This document shows positions 9,001-63,020 of a stretch of DNA of 64,000 nt, one piece after another (position 1 is the stretch's first letter; every line of letters starts with the position of its first letter). Under the pieces are notes generated by a model that searched no databases, was not told where the DNA came from, and saw only the letters and a program-made list of their open reading frames with translations. The stretch comes from an uncultured Chitinophaga sp. Lineage in GTDB: Bacteria; Bacteroidota; Bacteroidia; Chitinophagales; LD1. A program made the position numbers and the translations under genes. The DNA lies in contig CAZBPG010000004.1 of the NCBI GenBank assembly GCA_964493695.1, forward strand, positions 40,466-104,465, given 5' to 3'.

Positions 9001-12000
9001 ACTACTACTTATTACGTCACCGTATCTGATAGTAAAGGATGTATTGCTGTTGATTCTGTAACGGTGACAGTGAATCCTGCGCCAATGGCTAATGCCGGTG
9101 CAGATACGACTCTGTGCGGAGGTCTTTCAGTTATGTTAGGTGGAGAACCAACCGCATCGGGAGGAACACCGGGATATACTTATGTGTGGGCTCCCTCTAC
9201 AGGATTGAGTAATTCAGCTGCGTCTAATCCTACAGCAACTCCTAATGCTACTACAACTTACACAGTAAGAGTAACCGATGCTAACGGATGCTCTGCTTCC
9301 GATGCCGTACAGGTGACTATTTTGGCATTGCCGGTAGCTGATGCAGGTGCTGACCAAACTTTAGTGGCTTGCTCTGCGGATAGTGTCCAAATTGGAGGGT
9401 CACCTTCAGCTTCAGGAGGGACAACACCATATACTTACGATTGGTCACCTAACGGTGGATTGTCAGACACTTCGGCATCTAATCCATATGTAAGCCTTTT
9501 GGGTTCTAGTACTACTTTTACTTTGGTGGTAACCAGCAACAATGGGTGCAGTGCTTCTGATCAGGTAACTGTTAATGTAAACAACAGCACATTAGTGGCT
9601 GAGGCAGGAAACGATGTTGCTTTCTGTGAAGGAGCTTCGGTTTCCATTACATTAGGTGGTAGTCCGACAGCGGTTGGCGGAACAGCACCATTTAGTTATT
9701 CATGGTCTCCGGCAACGGGATTAAGCAGTACTTCTGCCGCAAACCCTGTTGCTACTCCGTTAGTTACTACAACCTATAGTGTAATTGTTACAGATGCTAC
9801 CGGATGTGTTGCCGGAGATACCGTTCGTATTACCATCAATCCTCGTCCGGTGGTTAGTGCCGGATTGGCAGATACGGTTTGCGCAGGAAGTGCTATTCAA
9901 ATTGGAGGAACACCTACTGCAAGTGGCGGAACAGGTTCTTATTCTTATAGCTGGAATCTTGGTTTACCTGCAGTTGCAAATCCGATTATTAACCCGATTG
10001 CTACACTAACATATGTAGTTACTGTAACTGATTCATTGGGTTGCAGTAATAACGGAAGCGTTACTATTAAGGTTAATCAAAATCCAACAGCAGATGCGGG
10101 CGCTGACCAGACAGTAGTTGCATGTCCTGATGCATGTGTAACCTTAGGTGGTTCACCTACTTCTACCGGTGGTGGTGGAGGTTACTTATATGCATGGGCT
10201 CCTTCAGCCGGATTGAACAATACAGGTTTGTCGAATCCTTCCGCATGTAATTTATCACAATCGCTTACCTATAATTTGACTGTGACTGATGCTAATGGAT
10301 GCACAGCGATTGACCAGGTTTCAGTAACCGTTAATCAATCAACTTTAGCAGCCGATGCTGGAAACGATAAAAGTATCTGTGCCGGTCAACCAATCTGTAT
10401 TACCATAGGTGGCACGAATGCGGTTTCGGGAGGAACCAGCCCGTATGTCATCGATTGGTCACCGGTTGCGGGAATATGTAACTCAAATGTTATTCCGAAC
10501 CCGGATGTAAACCCAACAGATACTACAACGTATGTATTGCTTGTTACAGATGCACTCGGTTGTATTGCTGTCGACTCAATGGTAGTATACGCAAACCCTG
10601 CAGTAACAGCTTCGGTTTCTCCGGATACAGCAATTTGTCAGGGAGGCTCAGCTTTACTTGGCAGTTCCCCTACAGGCAGCGGAGGAACAAGTCCATTCAC
10701 ATATTCGTGGAACCCAGGTTCCGGATTAAACAACACAACTTCTGCTAATCCTATAGCAAGCCCGTCAGCCACTACTTCTTATTGCGTAACAGTAACCGAT
10801 GCAGTTGGATGTTCATCCTCTACCTGCCAGACAGTTACCGTAAATGCAGGGGTAACAGCCGATGCCGGTCAGGATAGAACAATTACAGAATGTCCCGGAG
10901 CATTTACTATTCTGGGTGGTTCACCGACAGGTTCAGGTGGTTCAAATAATTATTCATACGCGTGGTCTCCGACTGCTAATCTTAACGGATCTACTATACC
11001 AAATCCAATAGCAACAGGACTGACGGTTACCACTACATTTACTGTAACGGTAACTGACAATGCTACAGGATGTTTCTCAACCGATCAGGTTGTTGTAACA
11101 GTGCTGAAAACAAATTTAGGAGTTGATGCGGGTTCGAATAAAGTGTTCTGCGCAAACAGTACAGGTTGTGTTGTCATTGGTGGTAATCCTACTGCAATTG
11201 GCGGTCAGCCACCTTATATCTATCAGTGGGCTCCGGTTACCGGAATGAACGATCCTACTATTGCGAATCCGTGTGTGGCACCAATTAATACCACACAATA
11301 TCTTGTAACCGTAACTGATCAGTTGGGTTGCTTTGAAGTTGACTCAATGACTGTTATTGTTAGTCCGTTGATCGCGGTTAATGCAGGAAATGATACTTCC
11401 ATCTGTACAGCCACATCTGTGATTCTTGGAGGTAACCCTCCTGCTGTAGGAGGAACCACACCATACACTTATGCATGGAGTTTGGGTGCATTTCCAAGTA
11501 GTTCTGCTCACCCGACCGCTACACCTGTTTCAAACAGTAGCTACACATTAGTGGTGACAGACTCATTAGGATGTTCATCTTCAGACATTGTGAATGTTGC
11601 ACTTCGTCCGTTGCCAACAGCAAGCGCAGGACCGGATGCCACCATTACAGCATGTACTGCTGATAGTGCTGTTATTGGGGGGGCACCGACAGCATCAGGA
11701 ACAACACCTCCTTATACATATGAATGGAATCCACCGGTTGCTTTGAATAATGCCAACGCATCTAATCCTGTAGTTCAGAACCTTGGATTTACCACTCTTT
11801 ATACCGTAACGGTTGTTGACACATTTGGATGTTCTGCTACTGATCAAACTCAGGTAACAGTTCTTCCTAATACTTTGTTTGCAGAAGCAGGAGTAAATAT
11901 TGGAAGTTTATGTGCTAACGTTGGAGGTTGTGTAACATTAGGAGGTAATCCTACTGTAACAGGAGGTGTTCCCGCTTATAGCTATAACTGGCTGGGTGGC

Positions 12001-15000
12001 GTGAACGATCCTACTTCGCCTAATCCGTCAGCGTGTCCTGTGGTAACTACAACTTATACGGTAATTGTAACCGATCAAGACGGATGTGAGTCTTCGGATA
12101 CAATTCAGGTAATAGTGAATGATCCGCCTAATGCGAGCGTGGTTGGATTGAATTCATCGTACTGTATAAATGATCCAAACGTAGTTATGACGGGTTCGCC
12201 TTCAGGAGGGATATTTAGCGGTCCAGGAGTTACCGGTAATGTATTTCAACCGGCTTCAGTGGGTGAAGGATACTGGTGTATTCAGTATTCATATATGGAT
12301 CCTCTGACAGGTTGTGCAGATGATACTACAATTTGTGTGACGGTTAATCCATTGCCGGCAGTTACTGCCAGCGGATTTGCTCCTGCATATTGTCGATTTG
12401 ATGCACCGGTAACCTTAGTGGGTTCTCCGGCAGGCGGAATCTTCACCGGAAGCTCTGGATTGTCGGGTGTTGATGGAAGCACTTTCGAACCTTCAACAGC
12501 AACAGTGGGTAATAACGTTATTACTTATACTTATACAGATCTTCAGAGCGGTTGCAGCAACACTTACATCTTTGTTATCAACGTAAAAGATGCACCGGCA
12601 ATCAGCATTTCGGCTTCAATCGATACATCATGTCAGGGCGCTTCGGTAACATTTACACCGGCATTCAGTTTTGATGTATTTAATATAGTTTGGAGTTTAG
12701 ATGGAGGTGGTAACATTGGTGCGGGATTGAATCCTTTTACTTATACACCTGAAACTACAGATTACTGCGTGATAGCAACAGCTATTAATACTCCTAACGG
12801 GTGTGTATCTACTGATACAATTTGCGGTCATGTGAACCAACCACCGGTTGCTAACGATGACTTTGCTGAAACATGTGAAGAGATACCTGTTCCTATTCAG
12901 GTTATTCTCAACGACACAGATCCTGAGGGAGATAACAGTGATGTAACGGTTATAACCACCGGTCATGGTAGTTCGACTGTTAGTGGAAACGTTCTTACTT
13001 ATACTTCGAATGTAGATTACTTCGGTTCAGATACCATCACTTACCAGGTGTGCAACACTGCTTGTGTAAATGCTTGCGATACAGGCACTGTAATTGTCAG
13101 CGTTTGTCCGGTGAACGACCCTCCTGTGATTACCGATGTGGTTGATACCATTTACATCAATACGAGCGACACTGTTTGTCCTCCGATTGAGGATGTGGAT
13201 GATGCTATCAATACACTTACAGTTACCACCTTCGATTGTGATACAATTAACGGGACCATCAGCGTCTTAAACGGGTGCATCGTGTATGTTCCAACTACTG
13301 ATTGGACGGGTACTCAGGTGATTTGTGTTTCGGTTTGCGATACATCGGGCACCTGTGATACCGGAACGGTAACTATTGTGGTTATTCCGGCAAATAATCC
13401 GCCAATTGCGCAAAAAGTAAGCGTAGTTACTTGTGAAAGAACAACGGTTGGTGTTAACGTGGCCTCTGCTACTACAGACCCGGACGGTAACCTGATGACC
13501 TATAGTTACGGAGCGGTGACAGGTCCTGGAACCGGAATCTGGGTGGTTACAGGAAACGGTTCGGGCGTATTTGTTGCGAACACACCGGGTGTTTACCATA
13601 TACCTTACTCTGTTTGCGATATTAGTAACATTCCTGTTTCACCACTTTGCGATACAAACGAAATTGTGGTGACTGTCATTGAGTGTGATTCTTCAAATAC
13701 ACCACCGGTTGCTACCGATGATGAAGTGATTACAACAGTAAATACCCCAATTGTTGTGAACGAATTGGCAAACGATTATGATGCCGATGGCGATCCGTTG
13801 AATGTTGCTATTATTTGTGGTCCGGGCTTGGGTCAGGCACAGGTATCGTTGAATCCTGATAATACCATTAGTTATTCATCTCCGGTAGCCGGCATTGATA
13901 CTATTTGCTATACCATCTGCGACCCATCGGGTGCTTGCGATACAGCGATTATTGTTATCCATGTCAACACAACGGTAGATGCGAACCATCCACCGGTAGC
14001 AGTTGATGACTTTGAAACTACTACTTATCAAACACCGGTAGATATCAACGTTCAGGGTAACGACCACGATCCTGATGGAAATCCGATTACAACCACTTCG
14101 ATTCCGGGTCCGCCTACCGGTGGAACAGCCACCATTAATCCGGACGGAACAATCAATTATGTTCCTACGACAGCAAATGCATACGATCCGGATACTTTCA
14201 CTTACGTGATATGCGATAATGGAAATCCTGCACTTTGCGATACTGCAACAGTGGTAGTTTACATCATCAATTCTGTGGTTGCTGTAGATGAGTGCACAGA
14301 AACAGGATATAATCACCCTGTGGTGATTAATGTGTTGAGTAATGATTACGACCCGGATATCATCGACTCCATTTGGGTTTCATCGTCATTTAATCTTCAG
14401 AATACACAGGGAACTACGTTTGTAGATTCTAAGGGAATGATTCATTACATTCCTAATTCTGATAGTTGCGGATACATTGACACATTCGCTTATATTATAC
14501 AGGATGAGGGAGGTGCTGTTGACACCGGCTACGTTTGTGTGGTGATTACCTGCTGCAAGGCTCCGATTGCTGTTATGGACACAGCACAGGTTATCTCGGG
14601 CGATTCAGTTTCCGTCAACGTTACGTTGAACGACACAATTGACGGGCCTACTCCGGTGCATGTTGTAGTTATAGGGCCATCACATGGTACTGCTTACTTT
14701 GTAGATAGCGTAAATGTGATGTATGTGCCGGATGCAGGTTATTGCGGATATGATACGTTCACCTATGCTGGTGAAAACCTTTGTGGTTTCGATACCGGAT
14801 TTGTTGTAGTGAACGTTATCTGCAACACTAAGCCTATAGCGTTTAACGATACATTCAATCTCTGCCGCTTCGATACACTTACTCTTTTCCCTGAACTGAA
14901 TGATGTGGATGCAGATGGCAACACTCTGACAATTTCAGGAATCGGAACACCAAGCAGTTCGGGTTTACTTACAGTGCTTGCTTTAACGGACAGCTCGGTG

Positions 15001-15957
15001 ACTGTAATTTCCACCGGTGTTCTTGGAGATGTTACGGTTGATTACTACATCTGCGATAACGGATTGCCTGTTAAATGTGATACCGGCACGATAGTCATTC
15101 ATATCGACCCTTGTGATAAGCCGGTGGTTAAGGATATTTATGATACCATCCAGTCATGTGCACATAACGATTCGATTTGTCTGGATGAATATGTTACGCT
15201 AAGCGACACGTATACCTGGTCAATCACCGGAATGTGTGCTCCGCAAAACGGTACGGTTACCAACTTGGCAACATGTTTCACTTATACGCCAAACCAGAAT
15301 TTCTTTGGCAATGACACTTTCTGTGTAATTGTGTGCAGTAATATTGAAATATGTGACACCGCTCTTGTAATTATGACTTCTGTTGATTGTAACATTCAGG
15401 CCGTAGACGAGTCATGCGATTTAGATACTACAATTATCAATACACCGATAACAGTAGATATTCTTGCCAACGATATTATTCCTTGGGCAGGCGATACTAC
15501 GGTTACGTTACTGACGCTTCCAGCAAATGGTTCAGCTGTTGTAAACAACGATAATACTGTAACCTACACGCCTAATACTGATTATAAAGGCAGCGATGAG
15601 TTTAGCTACTTAGTGTGTGCTGTTACCGGTGATTACGTTTATTGCGATACAGCAACAGTTTGTATCACTGTGATAGACACCATACAACCTTGCTACATAC
15701 CAAATGCATTCTCACCAAACGGTGATGGTGCAAATGACCTTTACAAGATACCTTGCGATAAGAATCCGAGAGCAACGCTTCGCGTGTTCAACCGTTGGGG
15801 TGTTGAAGTTTGGTACAGCGAAGGTGCATATGCAAACGATTGGGGTGGAACGAACATGCAGGGTACACCGCTGCCTGATGGAACTTACTACATCATTTAC
15901 GAATACAATGACGGCACCGGTAAGCGGGAAGCCAAGTTTGTTGTAATTCAACGATAA
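1..15957 (+). CDS. Giant (>5,300 aa, 5' end outside window) T9SS-secreted cell-surface repeat adhesin with type B (gliding-motility/CHU_C-type) C-terminal sorting domain
   Basis: One uninterrupted frame runs from nt 1 to TAA 15955-15957. Residues PIVLTDPSNP at nt 1-30 repeat the internal unit GSITLTDPSNP, so the gene starts upstream of the window and the TTG at nt 10 is not the start. The translation shows Ig-like W-T-G-P modules, cadherin-like ~95-100-aa units, PKD-like units, 23 GG-x-x-P-Y-x-Y-x-W modules, a second cadherin-like block and a C-terminal IPNAFSPNGDGANDLY...FNRWG...DGTYYIIYEY sorting domain. Confidence 0.93.
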   Translation, partial: PIVLTDPSNPSSPTNVIASPNPICINNTLTLSATGSSLSWTGPSSYSATGSPVTRLITTTLFGGTYSVTQTVANCTSAPATVTVVVKPTPGITSTSFTNPTTCGGTNGSITLNGLFADSTYSVTYDKNSVAQGPFTIAANGSGQVVISGLTAGTYSNFVVTLSGCPSNPVIGSITLTDPSNPPAPTNVTASPNPICSGNTLTLSATGSNLAWTGPLSYSGSGSPVTISITAVTQGGIYSVTQTVANCVSPPATVTVVVNPTPIITSTSGANPTTCGGTEGTITLSGLNTSTSYTVNYNKNASPVGPVLISTNVSGQLVITGLTAGTYSNIVVTLTGCPSAAAGPITLTDPANPAAPVATNSGPSCYGDTLKLFASNVLNGTYVWTGPGGYTSTEQNPIRVNATPAMSGVYSVVVTVANCNSTPATTSVTVASCPPVAVNDNYSTNEDQSLTVSAPGVLTNDYDPANPQQPITANTTPVSNPVHGTVTLNADGSFTYTPSANFNGLDSFIYSICDNEAPPACDTATVYITVVPVNDPPVVPDTTVTTPEDTAITVCIPITDPESGTQSHLIQSIYCGPSNGTIGSATINNGLLPHTLCVTYNPNLNFNGTDSICLVICDNGTPQLCDTTKVTIIVTPVNDPPIAVEDYYVSCLDTAIVKNVMTNDSDVDGPALAVTGALWGPSIGTLSLFANGSFTYTPTPFFNSLDSFSYRICDNGTPNLCDTAVVILDYTCTNTPPVAVNDNYTIPEDDTLIGNVSTNDYDPNGDSLIYNTTPVAGVSHGSLTLNNDGTFTYVPTPNYFGPDSFVYSVCDNGVPPLCDTATAYITVIPVNDPPYIPDTTVTTPEDTPTTVCIEITDIDVTNTHVSIVGCNPANGSLSSLSVNNLSNPHLVCVTYSPNTNFNGTDSFCIVVCDNGVPSACDTSVVTIIVTPVNDPPVANNDNYSTNEDTQLNVGAPGVQSNDSDPDGTTLTSTLVSGTSNGSVTLNPNGSFTYTPNTNFTGTDTFVYSVCDAGIPLPPLCDTAIVVITVNPVNDPPFIPDTTVTTPEDTPTTVCIPITDPETTTQIHLAFLCDNPNSGSITAPSVNLASNPHTVCVTYTPNTNFNGTDSFCVIVCDNGNPILCDTSIVTIVVTPVNDPPVANNDNYSTGEDTPLNVGAPGVQSNDSDPDGTTLTSTIVTGTSNGSVTLNPNGSFTYTPDANFNGTDTFVYSICDAGIPLPPLCDTAIVVITVNPQNDPPYVPDTTVTTPEDTAITVCLPISDGDVGQQYIATICGTPANGLITFGPVVNNGSIPPTVCVTYTPNTNFNGIDSLCITVCDNGIPFLCDNSIVKINVTPVNDPPVANNDSYTTPEDTPLNVTPSGVLGNDNDPDGTALTSTLIDSTSNGSLVLNGNGSFTYVPNSNYNGTDTFYYSACDAGIPLPSLCDTAMVVITVTPGNDPPEIPDTTVTTCEDCPITVCLPITDTDSLDVHSYTSLCPGQNGTVTGTTINQSTNTLCFTYTPYLNVNGSDTVCFIVCDNGTPQGCDTTTITILITPVNDPPYADTIYVVTFENQPVGVNVASATGDPEGNPLSYSYYGVIPGGGTYGITGNGAIVVYPNPGFTGTFAIPYSVCDLSPYPVNILCDSAAIIVTVLPEGDTLINHSPVASNDYVTTSLNTPVVVNELANDYDPDGDALQVTVTCTPDDGNYTVNPNGTINYFPDNGFFGFDTICYTICDPTAVNNPKPLCDNAIVVIYVSTDSTSFENDPPVAVDDFAYICADANATLNLLLNDNDPNGDAITSVSIIDNVDYGVLSNAGFGFYVYTPNGSAALNDTLLYEICDNGTPSLCDTGMAVIFINATPVVTPSVGSAIVCSNDNVNITFTSSVPGTVISWTATNGTSGTGNINTVLTNNTSVDQVVTYTVSGTTGFGCGSSALIIPVTVKPRPVITFTSNGSIFCSGEQVVINANSNIAGTTYTWSGTNGSSGTGSLISDNPVNSGTANITVTYTIIPTYNGCVGNTLAVDVTVKPQPSLTVNPATQTICSGAPISIAITPSISGTSVNWFGSNGNSGNSLTINDSPFNFGSSNITVTYTVNGNYNGCPANTVFATVVVRPRVVADAGQDKTVVACTGSCVIIGSSPTGAGGSGTLAYAWSPSAGLNDSTLANPTACGLLVNTTYTVIVSDGSGCSATDQVTITSTPNPLSAEAGAGGALCLGSGDSVMLGGFPTAVGGVAPYTYTWSPLTGLNLTNNANPDAFPTTTTEYFVTVTDQIGCQSVDSTVVTVYPVLVANAGADTTVCATFAAQLGGTPTASGGSGTGYTYIWSPTVGISNVNDANPTATPAVLTTYSVYVADGNGCTATDNVIVTVHSNPTAHAGPDKTIVTCSGDSTTIGDVPAVTGGTGPYTYSWTPAIGLSNDTIANPVVKGITVTTTYMLSITDANGCVSTDNVTVNVVTNTLQAQAGPDEAVCSNNNCVQVGGIPTAVGGTPPYVYDWSNGTSLSDSTASNPLACPSSTTTYTVVVTDSKGCTATDAETVTVNPSPSANAGPDTSVCSGSSIAIGGAPTATGGTPGYAYSWNPTVGLSLPNVANPSASPVVVTTYQLIVTDAKGCAALDEVTVTPRPNPVVDAGADKTLVSCVADTAFMLVNVTGGTSPYSFVWSPATGLSSSTVQNPYATGLTVTTSYQVAATDTFGCSATDFIVVNVVQSTLQADAGNDGQLCGNSGSSVSLGGIPTAVGGTSPYTYNWGTSTSSVSNLPNPTVSPTVTTTYYVTVTDSKGCTSVDSVTVVFNPAPSADAGTDTTMCSGFCVTIGGTPATVGGTGPYQFLWSPTVGLNSNNNPNPLACPLVTTTYNLLVTDANGCQSSDAVTITILSNPTANAGPDQTLVNCSSDSITIGGSPAASGGAGGYAYSWSPSGGLSADSIANPFVKGINVSQLYTLVVTDLYGCSAEDAVVVNVVPGNLTAEAGSGGSYCQGIGGSVTLGGVPTAVGGTPSYSYSWSGGLSPVANPVASPASTTTYYVTVSDSKGCIAVDSVTVTVNPAPMANAGADTTLCGGLSVMLGGEPTASGGTPGYTYVWAPSTGLSNSAASNPTATPNATTTYTVRVTDANGCSASDAVQVTILALPVADAGADQTLVACSADSVQIGGSPSASGGTTPYTYDWSPNGGLSDTSASNPYVSLLGSSTTFTLVVTSNNGCSASDQVTVNVNNSTLVAEAGNDVAFCEGASVSITLGGSPTAVGGTAPFSYSWSPATGLSSTSAANPVATPLVTTTYSVIVTDATGCVAGDTVRITINPRPVVSAGLADTVCAGSAIQIGGTPTASGGTGSYSYSWNLGLPAVANPIINPIATLTYVVTVTDSLGCSNNGSVTIKVNQNPTADAGADQTVVACPDACVTLGGSPTSTGGGGGYLYAWAPSAGLNNTGLSNPSACNLSQSLTYNLTVTDANGCTAIDQVSVTVNQSTLAADAGNDKSICAGQPICITIGGTNAVSGGTSPYVIDWSPVAGICNSNVIPNPDVNPTDTTTYVLLVTDALGCIAVDSMVVYANPAVTASVSPDTAICQGGSALLGSSPTGSGGTSPFTYSWNPGSGLNNTTSANPIASPSATTSYCVTVTDAVGCSSSTCQTVTVNAGVTADAGQDRTITECPGAFTILGGSPTGSGGSNNYSYAWSPTANLNGSTIPNPIATGLTVTTTFTVTVTDNATGCFSTDQVVVTVLKTNLGVDAGSNKVFCANSTGCVVIGGNPTAIGGQPPYIYQWAPVTGMNDPTIANPCVAPINTTQYLVTVTDQLGCFEVDSMTVIVSPLIAVNAGNDTSICTATSVILGGNPPAVGGTTPYTYAWSLGAFPSSSAHPTATPVSNSSYTLVVTDSLGCSSSDIVNVALRPLPTASAGPDATITACTADSAVIGGAPTASGTTPPYTYEWNPPVALNNANASNPVVQNLGFTTLYTVTVVDTFGCSATDQTQVTVLPNTLFAEAGVNIGSLCANVGGCVTLGGNPTVTGGVPAYSYNWLGGVNDPTSPNPSACPVVTTTYTVIVTDQDGCESSDTIQVIVNDPPNASVVGLNSSYCINDPNVVMTGSPSGGIFSGPGVTGNVFQPASVGEGYWCIQYSYMDPLTGCADDTTICVTVNPLPAVTASGFAPAYCRFDAPVTLVGSPAGGIFTGSSGLSGVDGSTFEPSTATVGNNVITYTYTDLQSGCSNTYIFVINVKDAPAISISASIDTSCQGASVTFTPAFSFDVFNIVWSLDGGGNIGAGLNPFTYTPETTDYCVIATAINTPNGCVSTDTICGHVNQPPVANDDFAETCEEIPVPIQVILNDTDPEGDNSDVTVITTGHGSSTVSGNVLTYTSNVDYFGSDTITYQVCNTACVNACDTGTVIVSVCPVNDPPVITDVVDTIYINTSDTVCPPIEDVDDAINTLTVTTFDCDTINGTISVLNGCIVYVPTTDWTGTQVICVSVCDTSGTCDTGTVTIVVIPANNPPIAQKVSVVTCERTTVGVNVASATTDPDGNLMTYSYGAVTGPGTGIWVVTGNGSGVFVANTPGVYHIPYSVCDISNIPVSPLCDTNEIVVTVIECDSSNTPPVATDDEVITTVNTPIVVNELANDYDADGDPLNVAIICGPGLGQAQVSLNPDNTISYSSPVAGIDTICYTICDPSGACDTAIIVIHVNTTVDANHPPVAVDDFETTTYQTPVDINVQGNDHDPDGNPITTTSIPGPPTGGTATINPDGTINYVPTTANAYDPDTFTYVICDNGNPALCDTATVVVYIINSVVAVDECTETGYNHPVVINVLSNDYDPDIIDSIWVSSSFNLQNTQGTTFVDSKGMIHYIPNSDSCGYIDTFAYIIQDEGGAVDTGYVCVVITCCKAPIAVMDTAQVISGDSVSVNVTLNDTIDGPTPVHVVVIGPSHGTAYFVDSVNVMYVPDAGYCGYDTFTYAGENLCGFDTGFVVVNVICNTKPIAFNDTFNLCRFDTLTLFPELNDVDADGNTLTISGIGTPSSSGLLTVLALTDSSVTVISTGVLGDVTVDYYICDNGLPVKCDTGTIVIHIDPCDKPVVKDIYDTIQSCAHNDSICLDEYVTLSDTYTWSITGMCAPQNGTVTNLATCFTYTPNQNFFGNDTFCVIVCSNIEICDTALVIMTSVDCNIQAVDESCDLDTTIINTPITVDILANDIIPWAGDTTVTLLTLPANGSAVVNNDNTVTYTPNTDYKGSDEFSYLVCAVTGDYVYCDTATVCITVIDTIQPCYIPNAFSPNGDGANDLYKIPCDKNPRATLRVFNRWGVEVWYSEGAYANDWGGTNMQGTPLPDGTYYIIYEYNDGTGKREAKFVVIQR
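1300..5520 (+). repeat. First block of ~14 cadherin-like (~95-100 aa) tandem domains inside the giant adhesin
   Basis: Units of the form PPVA(V/N)NDxY..ED..L.V...GV..ND.DP(D/N)G...GSFTYTP...F.G.D.F.Y..CD.G.P..CDTA.V.ITV.PVNDPP recur. They alternate with PP.IPDTTVTTPEDT..TVC.PI.D.. units. Confidence 0.8.
6292..12129 (+). repeat. 23 tandem ~85-aa modules (core GG-x-x-P-Y-x-Y-x-W-S/N-P ... TTTY.V.VTD..GC...D.V.V) organised as a 3-module super-repeat
   Basis: I parsed the modules by hand from the translation. Types a (ADAG.DKT.V.C...TL), b (AEAG..G..C) and c (ANAG.DT..C) recur in strict a-b-c order, giving 7 full triplets plus a-b. The span is 5,838 nt, or 1,946 aa for 23 modules. Confidence 0.85.
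12832..15690 (+). repeat. Second block of cadherin-like tandem domains inside the giant adhesin
   Basis: PPVA(N/T/V)DD... ND(T/Y)DP(E/D)GD ... CDT(A/G).V.V units resume at NQPPVANDDFAETCEE and continue to ...YCDTATVCITVIDT. Confidence 0.75.
15691..15954 (+). other. T9SS type B C-terminal sorting domain (TIGR04131-like) of the giant adhesin
   Basis: The sequence is CYIPNAFSPNGDGANDLYKIP...LRVFNRWGVEVWYSE...WGGTNMQGTPLPDGTYYIIYEYNDGTGKREAKFVVIQR. Similar tails occur at 43525-43765 (NAFTPNNDGVNDVF...NRWG...GTYYYI) and, on the minus strand, at 63657-63950. Confidence 0.85.
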
Positions 15958-26774: not shown

Positions 26775-26886
26775 TACTCATTTTGTTTAAACAAATACCC
26801 GCTTTATTGATTTTATTACTCATTATGATAAAAATTTTACTCATTATTACTCAATAATTACTCATTTATTAAACAGAACTACTCAT
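26775..26886. repeat. Six helically phased TACTCA(T) boxes in the convergent speA-like/orphan intergenic region
   Basis: TACTCA starts at 26775, 26817, 26838, 26848, 26859 and 26880, giving spacings of 42, 21, 10, 11 and 21 nt. Three copies read ATTACTCA(T/A). Confidence 0.75.
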
Positions 26887-26907
26887 TTTTATACAAAAAT
26901 CACGTGT

Positions 26908-49503: not shown

Positions 49504-50451
49504 ATGAATTCCAATTCCAATTCCAATTCCAAATTCCAAATTCCAAATTCCAAATTTCTGGTTGTTATCTGCGGCCCTACTGCTATCGGCAAAACTTCTC
49601 TTGCAATTGATTTAGCGAAGAATTACAATTCCGAAATCATCTCTGCCGATTCACGCCAGTTCTATCGCGAAATGAACATCGGCACAGCAAAACCAACGGA
49701 AGAACAACTCGCGCAAGTGCCTCACCACTTCATCAACAACATTTCTATCCACACCAAAAACTACAGTGCAGGTAAGTATGAGTTTGAAGTGCTGGAATTT
49801 CTCGAGAAGTATTTTCGGGAGAAAGATATAGCAGTGATGGTTGGCGGCTCCGGTCTTTTTATCAACGCGGTTTGCAGCGGCTTCGACAAATTTGAAAAAG
49901 AAGACGATAGCCAGCTATGGGTTACCCGCAGGTTCCTCAACGAAAAAAATCTGGAATGGCTGCAGGCAGAAGTAGAGCGCTTAGACCCCGAATACTTCGC
50001 CATTGTTGACAAAAAGAACCCAATGCGTCTCAAACGAGCCCTCGAAATAATTTACACCACCGGTAAAAAATATTCTGAGCAGCGCATCGGAAAAAAAACA
50101 GAACGACCTTTCAACATCATTAAAATCGGCTTGACCCTGCCGCGCGAAATTCTCAACGAACGAATCAACAACCGGGTTGATGAGATGATGAAAACAGGTT
50201 TGCTGGAAGAAGTAAAGCAACTCTACCTCCACAAAAAACTTCACACACTAAACACCGTTGGCTATACCGAACTGTTCGATTTCATCGAAGACAAAATTTC
50301 TTTAGAAGATGCGGTTGCCCTTATCAAACAAAACACGCGCAATTACGCCAAGCGGCAAATGACCTGGTTCAAAAAAGATGACGGTATTAAATGGTTTCAA
50401 CCGGAGCAGAAAGAAGAAATAACCGAATACATCAATTCAAAAATCCAATAG
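49504..50451 (+). CDS. miaA: tRNA dimethylallyltransferase
   Basis: P-loop VVICGPTAIGKTS, plus SADSRQFYREMNIGTAKP and a typical MiaA C-terminal half. The only in-frame ATG precedes the microsatellite. Confidence 0.9.
   Translation: MNSNSNSNSKFQIPNSKFLVVICGPTAIGKTSLAIDLAKNYNSEIISADSRQFYREMNIGTAKPTEEQLAQVPHHFINNISIHTKNYSAGKYEFEVLEFLEKYFREKDIAVMVGGSGLFINAVCSGFDKFEKEDDSQLWVTRRFLNEKNLEWLQAEVERLDPEYFAIVDKKNPMRLKRALEIIYTTGKKYSEQRIGKKTERPFNIIKIGLTLPREILNERINNRVDEMMKTGLLEEVKQLYLHKKLHTLNTVGYTELFDFIEDKISLEDAVALIKQNTRNYAKRQMTWFKKDDGIKWFQPEQKEEITEYINSKIQ
49507..49551 (+). repeat. Compound microsatellite (AATTCC)4(AAATTCC)3 inside the first 16 codons of miaA
   Basis: Read directly from the sequence: ATG aattcc aattcc aattcc aattcc aaattcc aaattcc aaattcc aaatttctg. 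It encodes NSNSNSNSKFQIPNSKF. A tandem octamer CGCCTCTG x2 lies just upstream at 49483-49498. Confidence 0.9.
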
Positions 50452-53911: not shown

Positions 53912-54036
53912 GTAACGGGGCGCGAAGGTAGTTTTTAATGGAGGAGGGTTGTGATTGAGTGATGGGGGAGTTTTGGTTTCAGCATGTGGGGTTTTGTTCC
54001 CCCCGTTTTTAAATTCGGATTATGTCCGGTGGTCTA

Positions 54037-54060
54037 TGGCACGAGCGGACGCTCGCGCCA
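54037..54060. terminator. GC-rich hairpin downstream of the cyclase gene
   Basis: TGGCACGAGCG, loop GA, CGCTCGCGCCA: an 11-bp stem with one mismatch, 43 nt after the cyclase stop. CTCGCGCCAG is repeated immediately after. Confidence 0.35.
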
Positions 54061-54102
54061 GAGGAGCTCGCGCCAGTGGGTGCTGCTTGGCTTACGTTGC
54101 AG

Positions 54103-54735
54103 TTAGCCCCAATATGACTCCTTGGATTTTCCTTCAATCCAAACATCGCCTAAATTCATTTTGTAACAGATGTATTTCCCTTCTCCTGGTTTGCCCTTTA
54201 CCTCACTATAGCCAATGTCATAGCAGTAATCTTTTAGACCCATTGCAAAAGCGTTGGGTCCAACTAAGCATCTGTTGCCTTTCTCACGCGCTGATGTTAT
54301 ACGGGATGCATAATTAATTGCCTCACCTATGAAAAACTTTTGCACACCCAAGAAATTACTACTGATTTCTGAAACATCCAGGTATCCATACTCAATCCCA
54401 ATTTTTACTGACACACCTTTAGGCGCAAATGGAAATGCTGTTGAATTATTTGAAAGGTATTCGCATTGTTTGTCAATATCCTTCGCTATTTCAACACAGG
54501 CTTTAAACACATCTTCTGGGTTTACGATGATTCCCAACAAAGCATCTCCCATAAATCCGACTACATCACCTCCATTATTTTCGATTGCTCTGATGCTTCC
54601 ATATAGCACGTCTCGGATGAATTGCGCTATTAGATTTTTGTCAGGGTTAGCCACCATCCTTGTAAAGCCGTTAATGTCAAGGATTATTGCGAAAGCAGTA
54701 ATGCCTTTATGTTTCGGTATTTGAATTGGGCTCAC
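54103..54735 (-). CDS. Minimal stand-alone class III nucleotidyl (adenylyl/guanylyl-type) cyclase domain protein, 210 aa
   Basis: AIILDINGFT and FMGDALLG (the two metal-binding Asp), VKIGIEYG, GEAINYASRI (Asn/Arg pair) and SEVKGKPGEGKYICYKM. The start is GTG 54735, and the frame opens only 7 codons upstream. Confidence 0.8.
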   Translation of the reverse strand: MSPIQIPKHKGITAFAIILDINGFTRMVANPDKNLIAQFIRDVLYGSIRAIENNGGDVVGFMGDALLGIIVNPEDVFKACVEIAKDIDKQCEYLSNNSTAFPFAPKGVSVKIGIEYGYLDVSEISSNFLGVQKFFIGEAINYASRITSAREKGNRCLVGPNAFAMGLKDYCYDIGYSEVKGKPGEGKYICYKMNLGDVWIEGKSKESYWG

Positions 54736-54931
54736 TATCGTTTGTTTGTTTTTTTGTCAGAACGCGCCAAACATAAATTGTCGTCACAAGCCAAACACAG
54801 TCTAAACCAAGTTTGATTGCAGGGTTTATCGGTAAAAATTCATCAGCCAAATTGTTTACGACAAAAATTTTAACGAGATAAAACCCAATGTAAATTAGAA
54901 CTGAGATAAAAAATACTTTCGCATATTTCAT
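54707..54931 (-). CDS. 74-aa two-transmembrane-helix protein overlapping the cyclase start by 29 nt (possibly the detached membrane anchor of the cyclase)
   Basis: Helices VFFISVLIYIGFYLVKIFVV and IKLGLDCVWLVTTIYVWRVL, with polar tail TKKQTNDSEPNSNTET. An A7 tract (T7 at 54749-54755 on the + strand) lies in the overlap. Confidence 0.6.
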   Translation of the reverse strand: MKYAKVFFISVLIYIGFYLVKIFVVNNLADEFLPINPAIKLGLDCVWLVTTIYVWRVLTKKQTNDSEPNSNTET

Positions 54932-54958
54932 AAGTGATTATTTTATGATGAATGTTAC

Positions 54959-55666
54959 TTAGTGACAATACTTTTTAATTACTGCATCCACATTACTAAG
55001 CCCCAACTTTCGAGCCTGGCTTAAATCTATACACCCAGTTTCTTTTTGTCCTGACATAATTTTTGCCCTTCCTCTGCTGTAATAAGCCTCAGCATCTTTA
55101 GGATTAAATTCAATAGCCTTGTTTAAATCCGCTATAGCTCCTTGGTAGTCTGGCAAGTTAACTTTTGCTATTCCCCTATTGTAATATACGTTTCTATGTT
55201 TAGGATTAAATTCAATAGTCTTATTGTAATCAGCTATTGCGCCTCGGTAGTCTTGTAATACATCTTTTGCGCATCCTCTGTTAAAGTAAGCTAGTGCATA
55301 CTTAGGGTTAAGCTCAATAGCTTTGTTATAATCTGCGATAGCCCCTCTATAGTCACGTTGGTCTTGTTTTGAAAATCCTCTGCCATAATAAGCTCTTGCA
55401 AATTTGGGATCAAATTCAATAGCCTTACTGAAATCTACTATAGCGCCTTGGTATTCTTTTAGGTTATATTTTGCACTTCCTCTGTTATGATAAGCTAATG
55501 CATCCTTAGGATTGATTTCAATTGCTTTGTTGTAATCTGTTATAGCTCCACGGTAGTCTTGTAATTTACCTTTTGCAACTCCTTTATCAATATACTCTTG
55601 GCTTGTTTGGCAGTAGCAGTACATGAAGGAGTTAAACGCAACAATTAAAAAAAACGTAGTTTTCAT
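54959..55666 (-). CDS. Secreted protein made of ~6 near-consensus TPR repeats
   Basis: Signal peptide MKTTFFLIVAFNSFMYCYCQ (ATG 55666). Then 34-aa units of the form AYxNRGxAKxxLxDYxGAIADYNKAIExNPKxA, five regular copies plus one degenerate. Confidence 0.85.
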   Translation of the reverse strand: MKTTFFLIVAFNSFMYCYCQTSQEYIDKGVAKGKLQDYRGAITDYNKAIEINPKDALAYHNRGSAKYNLKEYQGAIVDFSKAIEFDPKFARAYYGRGFSKQDQRDYRGAIADYNKAIELNPKYALAYFNRGCAKDVLQDYRGAIADYNKTIEFNPKHRNVYYNRGIAKVNLPDYQGAIADLNKAIEFNPKDAEAYYSRGRAKIMSGQKETGCIDLSQARKLGLSNVDAVIKKYCH

Positions 55667-55785
55667 GTTGATTGGTTTTTTGCCTCCTAAAAATAAAAAT
55701 AATAGACTGTTTATCATCCGCTATTCGAGATGTTAGCCTGCGCATCCCGAACGTAAGATAACAAGCGATTTTTAATCACTAAACA

Positions 55786-56195
55786 AACAGATTAAAAACC
55801 TGTAACCATCTATAGGTACTACATGCACTTTCTTGAAAGAAAACACCATTACTAATCTGTTATTCATTATAACAGTTCTGTCATTACGCATTACTAATCT
55901 GTTATTTAGTAAAACAGATTTGATATTATATATTACTAATCTGTTTTTATCTATAACAGACCTGTTTTATAACATAACAAATCTGTAATTATGTAATACA
56001 GACCTGTTATTTGACATTACTAATCTGTTATTTAAAATTACAGACCTGTTTTACAGTATAGCAAATCTGTAATTATAAAATACAGACCTGTTGTTATACA
56101 TTACTAATCTGTTATTTAGTATAACAGATTAGCAATGGTGCATAACAGTTCTGTTATGCTTTTAAGGGTCTTGATTTTTTCAAAAAACCTGTTTT
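55786..56195. promoter_or_regulatory. Array of 15 core (+2 flanking) ACAG/CTGT-core sites with ~21-bp average phasing, organised as 42- and 84-bp higher-order repeats, filling the divergent control region
   Basis: ATTACTAATCTGTT occurs at 55848, 55890, 55932, 56016 and 56100. (A/T)ACAGACCTGTT occurs at 55955, 55997, 56039 and 56081. A(A/G)CAAATCTGTAATT occurs at 55976 and 56060. AACAGTTCTGT occurs at 55871 and 56144. AACAGATT occurs at 55913 and 56123. Weaker copies sit at 55786 and about 56185. Confidence 0.8.
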
Positions 56196-56274
56196 ATTTT
56201 GCAGTAATTCTTCCATTTCGTAACTAAACTCAGGATTTATGCCCCTAAGCCGATGTAACCGGAATTATCACCGC

Positions 56275-56910
56275 ATGAAAATTCACCAGCGCGGAACCCT
56301 TGCCAGCGGAATGCTGGAAACCTACTACAAAAACAACCCTCCGTTTACGGCCCCGGTTATGCCCAAGGCCGATTTTAAAAAACTGGTGAACGACTACAAC
56401 AGCCGCTATGCCGATTTTGCCAACGGTGGCAGGGCGCAGAAAGCCGACTGGCTGATTGCCCGTGACACTTTGATACATGGGCTTGACCTGATAGCCGACA
56501 ATGTGGACGAAGTAGCGGGCGGTAACGAAGATATTATTCTGGAAGGGGGCTTTCAGCCGCGTAAAACTTTCCGCTCCGGTAAAAATACGCCACCGGTGCC
56601 CGAAATTGAATCGCTGGAACACGGTGCCACCGGTCAGTTGTTTGCCACCTGCAAACTGCTTGAGCCGAACACGTTTTACGGCTGTATAATAAGCGAAGGC
56701 GCACCGCTTGATGAACGGGTGGTGATGCGTGCCGGTAAGCTGGTTATTCCTAAAGGGCTTACCACCGCTATTCAAATTGACGAAACCAAGAAACGCAAAA
56801 AGTCTTTTGTAAACCTTACCCCAATGGTTACCTACTACTTTTATTTTTTTGCGCGCAACTCGGCCGGTGTAAGTTCGCTGAGCGAGCCACGGGCTATTAT
56901 TTGTTTGTAG
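56275..56910 (+). CDS. Orphan protein (211 aa): helical N-terminal half, FN3/Ig-like beta C-terminal half
   Basis: I placed the start at ATG 56275 (MKIHQRGTL...). The C-terminal ...LTPMVTYYFYFFARNSAGVSSLSEPRAI resembles the final strands of an FN3 domain. No family recognised. Confidence 0.65.
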   Translation: MKIHQRGTLASGMLETYYKNNPPFTAPVMPKADFKKLVNDYNSRYADFANGGRAQKADWLIARDTLIHGLDLIADNVDEVAGGNEDIILEGGFQPRKTFRSGKNTPPVPEIESLEHGATGQLFATCKLLEPNTFYGCIISEGAPLDERVVMRAGKLVIPKGLTTAIQIDETKKRKKSFVNLTPMVTYYFYFFARNSAGVSSLSEPRAIICL

Positions 56911-56982
56911 AAACGGCTAAAGGCGCGGTTTCGGTTACCGGTGTGTCCGGTTATAAACGTTGAAAAGACTGGTTTTGTCATT

Positions 56983-57073
56983 CCGAACGAAGGTTTCCGA
57001 AGTGAGGAATCTTGTATTTTTATGGGAAGCAAATACAAGATGTCTCGTTCCTCGACATGACAAATGCTCACTT
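56983..57073. repeat. Palindromic REP/MITE-like element (inverted pair of TTTGTCAT...ATCTTGTATTT units, head-to-head)
   Basis: TTTGTCATTCCGAACGAAGGTTTCCGAAGTGAGGAATCTTGTATTT, loop, AAATACAAGATGTCTCGTTCCTCGACATGACAAA. Confidence 0.75.
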
Positions 57074-62042: not shown

Positions 62043-63020
62043 ATGAAAACAATAATTGGTGCAGCTATTCAGGTAGCGAAGCAATTTTTAGAGCAGGGCG
62101 AACCCGTAGGCATACCTACCGAAACAGTTTACGGGCTGGCTGCCAATGCACTGAATGAAGATGCGGTGCTGAAAATATTTTCGGTAAAGAACCGCCCGCA
62201 CTTCGATCCGCTGATTGTGCATACCCATTCGAAGGAGGAGATAGGAAAGTATGCGAAAGAGATTCCGGCTGCGGCAGAAAAGCTGATAGACGCTTTCATG
62301 CCTGGACCGGTGACGGTTCTGCTGAAGAAGAGAAAAAGTATTCCTGATTTGGTTACATCAGGTTTAGAAACTGTGGCTATCCGAATTCCGAATCACAAGC
62401 TTACACTTGATTTGTTGAAGCAACTTGACTTCCCTTTAGCGGCACCAAGCGCCAACCCTTTTGGTTACATCAGCCCTACTACCGCACAGCATGTATTTGA
62501 CCAGTTGCAGGGAAAGATTCCCTACATTCTTGATGGAGGCGCAACAAATGTAGGCGTTGAATCAACCATTGTGGGTTTTGAAAATGACGAAGCAGTTGTT
62601 TACCGGTTGGGTGGTTTGGCAATTGAAGAGATTGAAAGAGTGATAGGCAAAGTGAAGATAGACCTGAACGAAAGTTCGAACCCTAAAAGCCCGGGGATGT
62701 TGAAGAGCCATTATGCTCCGAAGAAGAAATTGACAATTGCAGAATTCGGAAATTCGGAAATCCGGAAATCCGGAAATGAAATTACAGGCGTGATTGCTTT
62801 TGACAAATACATAAATGGAATTGATGAGAAGAGTCAAATCCTTCTTTCCCCTTCCGGTGATTTGAATGAGGCGGCTAAGAATCTTTTTGCCGCTATGCGT
62901 AAGCTTGATGCCAGCAATGTGAACGAAATAATTGCGGTTAAGTTTCCTGATACGGGTTTAGGAAGGGCGATTAACGACAGGTTGAAGCGAGCATCAACAA
63001 TAGACTTGCCAAGTCTTTGA
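62043..63020 (+). CDS. tsaC: L-threonylcarbamoyladenylate synthase (Sua5/YwlC long form of TsaC)
   Basis: PTETVYGLAANA, KNRPHFDPLIVH and APSANPFG motifs, SHYAP, and a C-terminal Sua5 domain. I placed the start at ATG 62043. Confidence 0.88.
   Translation: MKTIIGAAIQVAKQFLEQGEPVGIPTETVYGLAANALNEDAVLKIFSVKNRPHFDPLIVHTHSKEEIGKYAKEIPAAAEKLIDAFMPGPVTVLLKKRKSIPDLVTSGLETVAIRIPNHKLTLDLLKQLDFPLAAPSANPFGYISPTTAQHVFDQLQGKIPYILDGGATNVGVESTIVGFENDEAVVYRLGGLAIEEIERVIGKVKIDLNESSNPKSPGMLKSHYAPKKKLTIAEFGNSEIRKSGNEITGVIAFDKYINGIDEKSQILLSPSGDLNEAAKNLFAAMRKLDASNVNEIIAVKFPDTGLGRAINDRLKRASTIDLPSL
62742..62773 (+). repeat. Tandem octamer (RAATYCGG)4 inside the tsaC/sua5 coding sequence
   Basis: GAATTCGG AAATTCGG AAATCCGG AAATCCGG, followed by AAATGAAA. 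It encodes EFGNSEIRKSGNE just after the SHYAPKKK segment. Confidence 0.85.

Follow-up and report, generated by a model that had tools for sequence, protein, structure and literature searches.

Two back-to-back gene units in an uncultured Chitinophaga sp.: a Pycsar-associated class III cyclase with non-canonical partners beside a phased repeat array and its FN3 gene

Do four small genes between a DEAD/DbpA helicase gene and the gene of a 703-aa membrane protein form one cyclic-nucleotide signalling or defence module, and does this module belong to a known system? The question is raised by a 64,000-nt stretch of DNA from an uncultured Chitinophaga sp. (contig CAZBPG010000004.1, positions 40,466 to 104,465), here called the window. 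A first-pass annotation, made from the sequence alone, had proposed an AT-rich islet acquired as a unit, in which a minus-strand operon for a TPR protein, a small protein with two transmembrane helices (2TM) and a nucleotide cyclase diverges from an orphan gene across a common, repeat-filled control region. Our analyses showed that the islet consists of two independent units lying back to back and is not one co-acquired module. Unit A comprises the TPR, 2TM and cyclase genes, unit B a 21-bp repeat array and the orphan gene. In window positions, the features are as follows.

54103-55717, minus strand: unit A, the TPR, 2TM and cyclase genes
54959..55717, minus strand: exported TPR protein with about six repeats, first gene of the operon
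54707..54931, minus strand: two-helix membrane protein (2TM), 74 aa
54103..54735, minus strand: minimal class III nucleotide cyclase, 210 aa, GTG start, third gene of the operon
55848-56910: unit B, the 21-bp array and the orphan gene
55848..56162, no strand: array of 15 in-register 21-bp units, GC content 0.251
56239..56910, plus strand: orphan, 223-aa helical and FN3 protein
54034..54063, no strand: GC-rich palindrome
57004..57046, no strand: inverted repeat within a longer palindromic element at about 56976-57066

The basic layout was as annotated: four open reading frames bounded by the helicase and the 703-aa membrane protein genes, a 27-nt gap between the TPR and 2TM genes, and a 29-nt overlap of the 2TM 3' end with the cyclase start. 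The orphan, given before as 211 aa, has 223 residues, and the first 12 are kept in 12 of its 13 homologues.

The extent of DNA homology separates the two units. Among the orphan loci, homology runs only from 55845, the first array unit, to about 56904-56917, the orphan stop; on the other side, homology with the loci L044, L037 and L038 (loci are given by our L numbers) stops exactly at the cyclase stop codon at 54103. Array and orphan occur together in five other unrelated contexts, none of them with a cyclase, where their neighbours are TauE and a 188-aa protein, MBOAT, a 141-aa protein, or non-coding DNA with SCO1 and cytochrome genes. L037 is the sole other locus with a cyclase operon across the array from the orphan. 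Compared with the window, its cyclase is 77% and its 2TM protein 62% identical, and the TPR gene is replaced by that of an unrelated lipoprotein. The two orphans are only 26% identical whereas the cyclases are 77% identical, which argues for independent juxtaposition rather than co-inheritance. As a set, the four genes thus do not recur in other genomes: only L037 is similar, five orphan contexts lack the cassette, and three 2TM contexts lack the cyclase.

Three ENA samples (ERZ27313623, ERZ28573546 and ERZ27313624) each contain both a 2TM-cyclase contig (L045-L047) and a contig with orphan and array (L055-L057). Adjacency of the two units in these samples is not supported, since L055 and L056 have no TPR gene in at least 370-600 bp 5' of the array. 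We conclude that the position of unit A next to unit B is not a conserved functional linkage, and that the repeats belong with the orphan. Of the proposed control region, the dense filling with repeats stands, with 15 units of 21 bp in the 521-bp intergenic region, but its role as a control region shared by a module does not.

Base composition divides the islet in the same place. With 30 other window genes as baseline (GC content 0.444±0.023), the TPR gene (0.353, z = -4.0), the 2TM gene (0.329, z = -5.1) and the cyclase gene (0.398, z = -2.0) are AT-rich, as is the array, whereas the orphan gene has the highest GC content among the window genes (0.506, z = +2.7). The islet described as AT-rich hence is so for the minus-strand operon and the array only. 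The cyclase cassette does look compositionally foreign (0.33-0.40 against the baseline) and is found again between other flanking genes, a pattern compatible with lateral acquisition. Judged from its sequence and distribution, unit A is rare and was probably acquired horizontally. A scan for tRNA genes, as a sign of an integrative element, gave zero in the 64 kb.

The hairpin and the palindrome that had been read as bounding the islet both exist, but they are not its ends. The palindrome at 54034-54063, between the stop codon of the cyclase and the start codon of the helicase, has 14-nt arms that are 86% complementary and 2 nt apart; no T run follows, and it was not called as an intrinsic terminator. 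It lies outside the shared cassette because homology with L044, L037 and L038 has ended by then. The inverted repeat at 57004-57046, whose 16-nt arms (57004-57019 and 57031-57046) are 88% complementary across a spacer of 11 nt, was not called as an intrinsic terminator either and lies beyond the homology of the orphan loci. A role of these flanking hairpins as terminators or cassette ends was therefore ruled out. The longer palindromic element at 56976-57066 reads GTCATTCCGAACGAAGG...CGTTCCTCGACATGAC, has weak partial copies in the window only at 55743 and 59384, and by its sequence looks like a REP-type repeat.

What does unit A encode? The cyclase matches the Pfam family PF00211 over residues 19-191 with 25.0 bits, above the gathering score of 21.9, and its homologue in L001 reaches 32.1 bits; the assignment as a cyclase made in the first-pass annotation is borne out. 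Four residues, D20, D64, N141 and R145, are unchanged across 21 homologues. We take D20 and D64 to be the two metal-binding aspartates and N141 and R145 the transition-state residues, roles assigned by homology to class III enzymes. The AlphaFold model is confident (pLDDT 92.1, pTM 0.89), and a Foldseek search with it put class III cyclases on top, the best fold matches being CyaC (1wc5, E 1e-14, TM about 0.7), Cya2 and CyaB. The ratio of nonsynonymous to synonymous substitution rates (dN/dS), computed for cyclase, 2TM and orphan, lay between 0.07 and 0.30 and indicates purifying selection in all three; the cyclase has the value of 0.07. With invariant catalytic residues, a confident class III fold model and this low dN/dS, the cyclase very probably is an active enzyme. 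Domain search and model agree that the cyclase itself contains no sensor domain.

Relatives of the cyclase are numerous but scattered. Homologues of its size, about 210 aa, number more than 140, and 36 loci of the family were recovered from species-representative genomes, in Bacteroidota, Verrucomicrobiota, Planctomycetota, Desulfobacterota, Nitrospirota, Acidobacteriota, Armatimonadota and Glassbacteria. The family is thus spread sporadically over at least eight phyla, and its gene neighbourhoods are very variable. Five of these neighbourhoods are operons with PycTM, with family cyclases 46-67% identical to that of the window, and four of the five also contain PycC. In L001-L003 and L038 (61-67% identity), the operon runs from PycTM through PycC to the family cyclase (L001 4751-6624, L002 4774-6624, L003 5989-7891, L038 1711-3564). 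Both Pyc genes are bona fide, with PADLOC scores of 103 bits for PycTM (PF18967) and about 180 bits for PycC. By their gene content, the four loci encode Pycsar plus a second cyclase of divergent sequence: hhalign relates the cyclase family to the adjacent true PycC with 95% probability at 24% identity, and relative to this neighbour the window cyclase is short of the N-terminal 40 or so residues. In L024, from another phylum (46% identity), a family cyclase again follows PycTM (63 bits), with a 230-aa protein between them (4620-6633). We considered this middle gene as a PycC candidate, but its hhalign match was not significant. Further operonic neighbours of family cyclases are HsdM, Mrr, GmrSD, TIR/SEFIR, mad2, IetS, LmuB and EVE. 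In many genomes, the family cyclase is surrounded by genes of restriction, TIR or Lamassu type.

The partner of the window cyclase is of a different kind. A search of 1.84 billion representative proteins gave the 2TM protein just three true relatives, and the 90% clusters added two closer ones. Their alignment shows an invariant MKYxK N-terminus, a lysine within helix 1 and an aspartate within helix 2. Since dN/dS is 0.12-0.30 and these features are conserved, the comparison of sequences marks the 2TM reading frame as a real gene. It matched no family in Pfam, PADLOC, NCBIfam or PHROG, PycTM and SLATT included (E <= 0.1-1 in NCBIfam, Pfam and PADLOC), and with these four libraries empty, PycTM, SLATT and holin were ruled out as identities of the protein. 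Metagenome scans for additional 2TM and orphan loci were both empty. The gene orders around 2TM, read in the direction of the operon, are these.

Window: TPR, 2TM, cyclase
L044-47: TPR, 2TM, cyclase, PIN; cyclase 82% identical, 29-nt overlap as in the window
L037: unrelated lipoprotein, 2TM, cyclase; identities to the window as given above
L048/49: TPR, 2TM, unrelated 161-aa protein
L050/51: trypsin-TPR, 2TM
L052/53: uncharacterised upstream gene, 2TM, MoxR-DUF58-VWA operon

In L044 and L037, 2TM and cyclase are contiguous and share 76-78% DNA identity with the window, with homology continuous through the 2TM gene. The flanks of the pair differ, with PIN in one locus and topoisomerase IV and DUF1801 in the other. 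In L048, homology with the window breaks at 54721, which is the 3' end of the 2TM gene. The downstream gene overlaps 2TM by 29 nt in the window and by 4 nt in L048 and L037, and by this arrangement the cyclase is translationally coupled to 2TM. Gene orders and homology breakpoints hence identify 2TM as the constant element, of which both the exported upstream and the cytoplasmic downstream partners are exchangeable.

Two of these partners deserve description. The 161-aa protein that takes the place of the cyclase (L048 1489-1974, also L049 705-1190) is helical and contains KGRNFVAHD, an Rx4H motif that looks HEPN-like by eye. It matched nothing in Pfam, PADLOC, NCBIfam, PHROGs or PDB sequences, and as the databases gave no support for the motif, assignment to HEPN was dropped. 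In L052, the 2TM homologue (70-321, 42% identity) lies directly 5' of the MoxR (bpMoxR/AAA_3)-DUF58-VWA operon, a context that hints at a cyclase-independent, envelope-related role for the small membrane protein.

The first gene of the operon encodes, as annotated, a secreted protein of about six TPRs. Five stretches each were matched by TPR_11 (E 2e-42) and TPR_1 (E 4.7e-40). At the DNA level the gene contains 5.1 copies of a 102-bp (34-aa) unit with 68% matches at 55061-55577, and because the unit repeats in the DNA itself, the TPRs may have been expanded or homogenised recently. Read from the second methionine, the N-terminus resembles a signal peptide, MKTTFFLIVAFNSFMYCYCQ, so that the true start is likely the methionine at 55666. 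Homologous exported TPR genes precede 2TM in L044 and L048 (38-47% identity), and a trypsin-TPR fusion does so in L050.

Is unit A then a Pycsar system? We used the definition of Pycsar given in PMC11224242 and bioRxiv 10.64898/2026.08.12.744502. The dominant effectors are CNBD-TIR proteins and 3TM pJV1-spdB3 proteins (bioRxiv 10.64898/2026.08.12.744502). Like Pycsar, the cassette has a stand-alone cyclase of about 200 aa with class III fold and catalytic Asp pair, and a small membrane protein encoded in the same operon; its distribution is patchy and its composition foreign, and the relatives of this cyclase sit inside true PycTM operons. Unlike Pycsar, its membrane protein has 74 aa and two helices and shows no similarity to the 3TM pJV1-spdB3/PF18967 protein of about 160 aa; a CNBD-TIR protein is missing from the cassette, and an exported TPR gene comes first in the operon. 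None of the 2TM, TPR and orphan proteins gave a PycTM, TIR or cyclic mononucleotide (cNMP)-binding match in Pfam, PADLOC or NCBIfam, whereas the neighbours in L038 and L024, as positive control, matched PycTM at 63-103 bits. This agrees with the earlier statement that the islet holds no known effector class. By its gene content the cassette would work most like a Pycsar variant, yet since the defining effector was not found we do not class it as Pycsar.

Related arrangements are known. Some Pycsar-1 loci encode several cyclases, for which relay-like or amplified signalling was suggested (bioRxiv 10.64898/2026.08.12.744502). The family cyclase is such an additional cyclase beside PycTM and PycC in L001-L003 and L038, whereas in the window neither of them accompanies the extra cyclase, which has joined another pair of genes. 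Membrane-anchored bacterial class III adenylyl and guanylyl cyclases with periplasmic sensors are likewise composed of a module in the periplasm, helices in the membrane and a class III catalytic domain in the cytoplasm. The window, in contrast, encodes these parts as three polypeptides, in a rare cassette of foreign composition whose modules can be exchanged between loci. From SLATT-type 2TM effectors the 74-aa protein differs in matching no SLATT model. What we describe is hence a class III, Pycsar-associated cyclase with non-canonical partners, in an unusual and rare architecture. Multi-cyclase or solo Pycsar-type cyclases are already in the literature, and the window adds the non-canonical partners.

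Unit B is built differently. Its array (55848-56162) keeps an exact 21-nt register over 15 units, with the consensus ATWACWRAYCTGTTATTTAnn and the core quasi-palindrome ATAACAGnnCTGTTAT; TRF reported periods of 21, 42 and 84. The motif has 19 matches in the window, all of them within the array, against 0.98 expected by chance. Self-identity at a lag of 21 nt is 0.47 in the window (0.29±0.02 after shuffling) and 0.47-0.53 over all seven intergenic regions (0.28-0.31±0.02). Arrays of 10-15 units with a 21-bp period lie 5' of every orphan homologue with readable upstream DNA, namely in the window, L037, L039/40, L041, L042/43, L054 and L055-57 (coordinates: L037 1625-1862, L039 5610-5916, L041 2180-2426, L042 1370-1620, L054 2140-2388, L055 379-596, L056 603-840), and end 50-120 bp ahead of the orphan ATG. 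Core motifs vary by lineage (ACAGnnCTGTWAT; ACAGAACAGTAAT; AACGTWGTAAT; CTCCTTATAAGAAAA), whereas period, copy number and position are conserved. The 10-15 quasi-palindromic sites lie on one helix face, and with this geometry they probably serve as a series of binding sites through which the orphan gene is regulated. Rfam had no match, and a known RNA was ruled out.

Phased direct-repeat arrays are found as plasmid iterons and as LytTR-type 9-bp repeats with 12-bp spacers, in 2-7 copies. The 21-bp array may be of a similar kind, with a period of about two helical turns, sites on the same DNA face, and a conserved core of about 13-16 bp plus a variable spacer in each unit. It differs in having 10-15 copies, in the lack of an adjacent Rep, Par or LytTR gene, in its position 5' of a helical and FN3 gene, and in a core that drifts while period and position are kept.

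Some arrays contain open frames for heptad-repeat peptides, one of 51 aa in the window (55833-55988, plus strand) and one of 70 aa in L037 (1628-1840, minus strand), both in the direction of the orphan gene; as 21 nt equal seven codons, these frames are probably a by-product of the repeats. In L039 (4953-5519) and L054 (1463-2029), the protein divergent from the array has 188 aa and ends in two hydrophobic helices. The L039 protein gave a sub-threshold SLATT_1 match (E 0.021, 14.8 bits, cut-off 41).

The orphan itself has 13 homologues of 41-74% identity, none with a Pfam domain. It belongs to no family in Pfam, PADLOC, NCBIfam or PHROG and has no signal peptide, and from its sequence the protein looks cytoplasmic. 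The FN3-like tail that had been noted is weak in sequence (E 0.055 for the window protein, 9.6e-5 for its homologue in L037), but it is upheld by the structure model (pLDDT 88.5), which has a helical N-terminal half with a long helix of about 50 residues (43-93) and a C-terminal FN3 domain. Fold matches of the model are to FN3 only, the top 50 in the PDB all being FN3-type with single-domain TM of 0.6-0.8; the C-terminus is thus modelled as an FN3 beta-sandwich. The dN/dS is about 0.25. No relatives were found in viral contigs, and with FN3 matches only, a DNA-binding or phage protein was ruled out.

As the most likely explanation, to which we give a probability of roughly 0.45, we propose that the two units are separate and that unit A is a Pycsar-derived cyclic-mononucleotide cassette, a plausible candidate for signalling or defence. 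Its cyclase would be a "solo" enzyme of Pycsar origin, brought by recombination to the 3' end of a TPR-2TM pair, and would make a 3',5'-cyclic mononucleotide as alarm or defence signal. This signal would be received either by 2TM, acting in the inner membrane as an oligomeric effector or an anchor, or by some protein whose gene lies elsewhere in the genome. The defence link suspected in the first-pass annotation thus survives through the cyclase family, which elsewhere is found in Pycsar operons and defence islands, but not for four genes as one module.

Several observations weigh against this proposal. The best PADLOC model of the window cyclase is PycC (PDLC02367, 50.7 bits), but a generic 401-aa Rhizobium plasmid cyclase that served as control scores higher on the PycC models (83.6 and 61.2 bits), so that this match was discarded as proof of Pycsar membership. 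Among the Foldseek matches BcPycC (7r65) ranks only 27th, behind cyanobacterial and Pseudomonas adenylyl cyclases; class III domains all score alike, and the fold search is uninformative as a separator of PycC from ordinary cyclases. The Pycsar link is thus given by the gene neighbourhood of the relatives, not by specificity of sequence or fold. PycTM is missing from the vicinity of about 85% of the cyclase-family loci, and housekeeping genes, e.g. for Mur ligase, UvrC and FtsX, are among the neighbours. The 2TM protein is found without a cyclase in three contexts (L048, L050 and L052), hence it is not a dedicated cyclase partner, and with 74 aa it is too small for a canonical CNBD. No cNMP-binding domain, PycTM, TIR or SLATT was detected in the islet with Pfam, PADLOC and NCBIfam, and phmmer, within its sensitivity, found no CRP-like protein in the whole 64 kb. 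According to the domain search, the genes flanking the islet do not form a defence island. Finally, two loci, the window and L037, have unit A next to unit B even with orphans of only 26% identity, which could hint at a real link.

The alternative that fares best, although we consider it rather unlikely, is physiological envelope signalling, in which a periplasmic TPR sensor, a 2TM transducer and the cyclase as output would form a split class III cyclase feeding cAMP or cGMP regulation. The tight packing of the operon, the missing sensor domain of the cyclase, the ordinary adenylyl and guanylyl cyclases among its top fold matches and the position of the L052 homologue before an envelope operon would all fit this, and the link that recurs most often is that between TPR and 2TM (window, L044, L048 and L050). 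However, a rare, AT-rich and patchy cassette is unlike housekeeping signalling genes, the third gene of L048 encodes an unrelated 161-aa protein, in L037 the TPR protein gives way to an unrelated lipoprotein, and relatives of the cyclase sit in Pycsar and other defence operons.

In a wider reading, which we regard as quite doubtful, 2TM would be the hub of a so far undescribed modular, envelope-linked conflict system. As transducer or pore, it would connect an exported sensor with a cytoplasmic output, both of them exchangeable: TPR, trypsin-TPR or lipoprotein on the sensor side, a Pycsar-type cyclase or the 161-aa Rx4H protein on the output side. Its cassettes would preferentially land beside units of array and FN3 gene that serve as a regulatory or insertion platform.

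It is improbable that 2TM is a small toxin- or holin-like protein with a variable downstream regulator or antitoxin, forming an addiction or abortive-infection pair in which 2TM does not sense a cNMP. The translational coupling, with its overlaps of 29 or 4 nt, the partner swap exactly at the 2TM 3' end, the charged residues kept inside both helices and the PIN-domain gene adjoining the cassette in L044 would suit such a pair. But L050 and L052 have 2TM without a coupled downstream partner, the protein has no family-level similarity to known holins or toxins, and strong selection on all catalytic residues of the cyclase would be needless for a mere antitoxin. Equally poor are the chances of a single co-acquired four-gene defence module with the array as common control region and the FN3 protein as component, which is largely refuted by the independent distribution of the units, their separate homology blocks, the unequal identities between window and L037, the GC content of the orphan and the L055 and L056 arrays lacking a TPR gene, even though the L037 orphan with its own 21-bp array again diverges from a lipoprotein-2TM-cyclase operon and three ENA samples contain contigs of both kinds.

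Apart from the islet, the window contains one ORF of 5315 aa (10-15957, plus strand) that spans a quarter of its length, short tandem repeats of AATTCCA (7.6 copies, 49507-49556) and of AATCCGGA (4.4 copies, 62743-62777), and four copies of a 21-bp unit between convergent genes (26814-26898).

If the cassette is functional, a cyclase of the Pycsar lineage could act without PycTM or PycTIR receptors, together with a tiny membrane protein and an exported TPR protein. Cyclic-mononucleotide immunity would then draw on a wider range of effectors and inputs, and the many "solo" minimal cyclases that are scattered in defence islands would become more tractable. If the cassette instead serves ordinary envelope signalling, the gain would be a modest one in annotation. 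The 21-bp-phased arrays of the helical and FN3 family are a clean, testable case of a conserved, probably regulatory architecture in which the geometry is kept while the sequence drifts.

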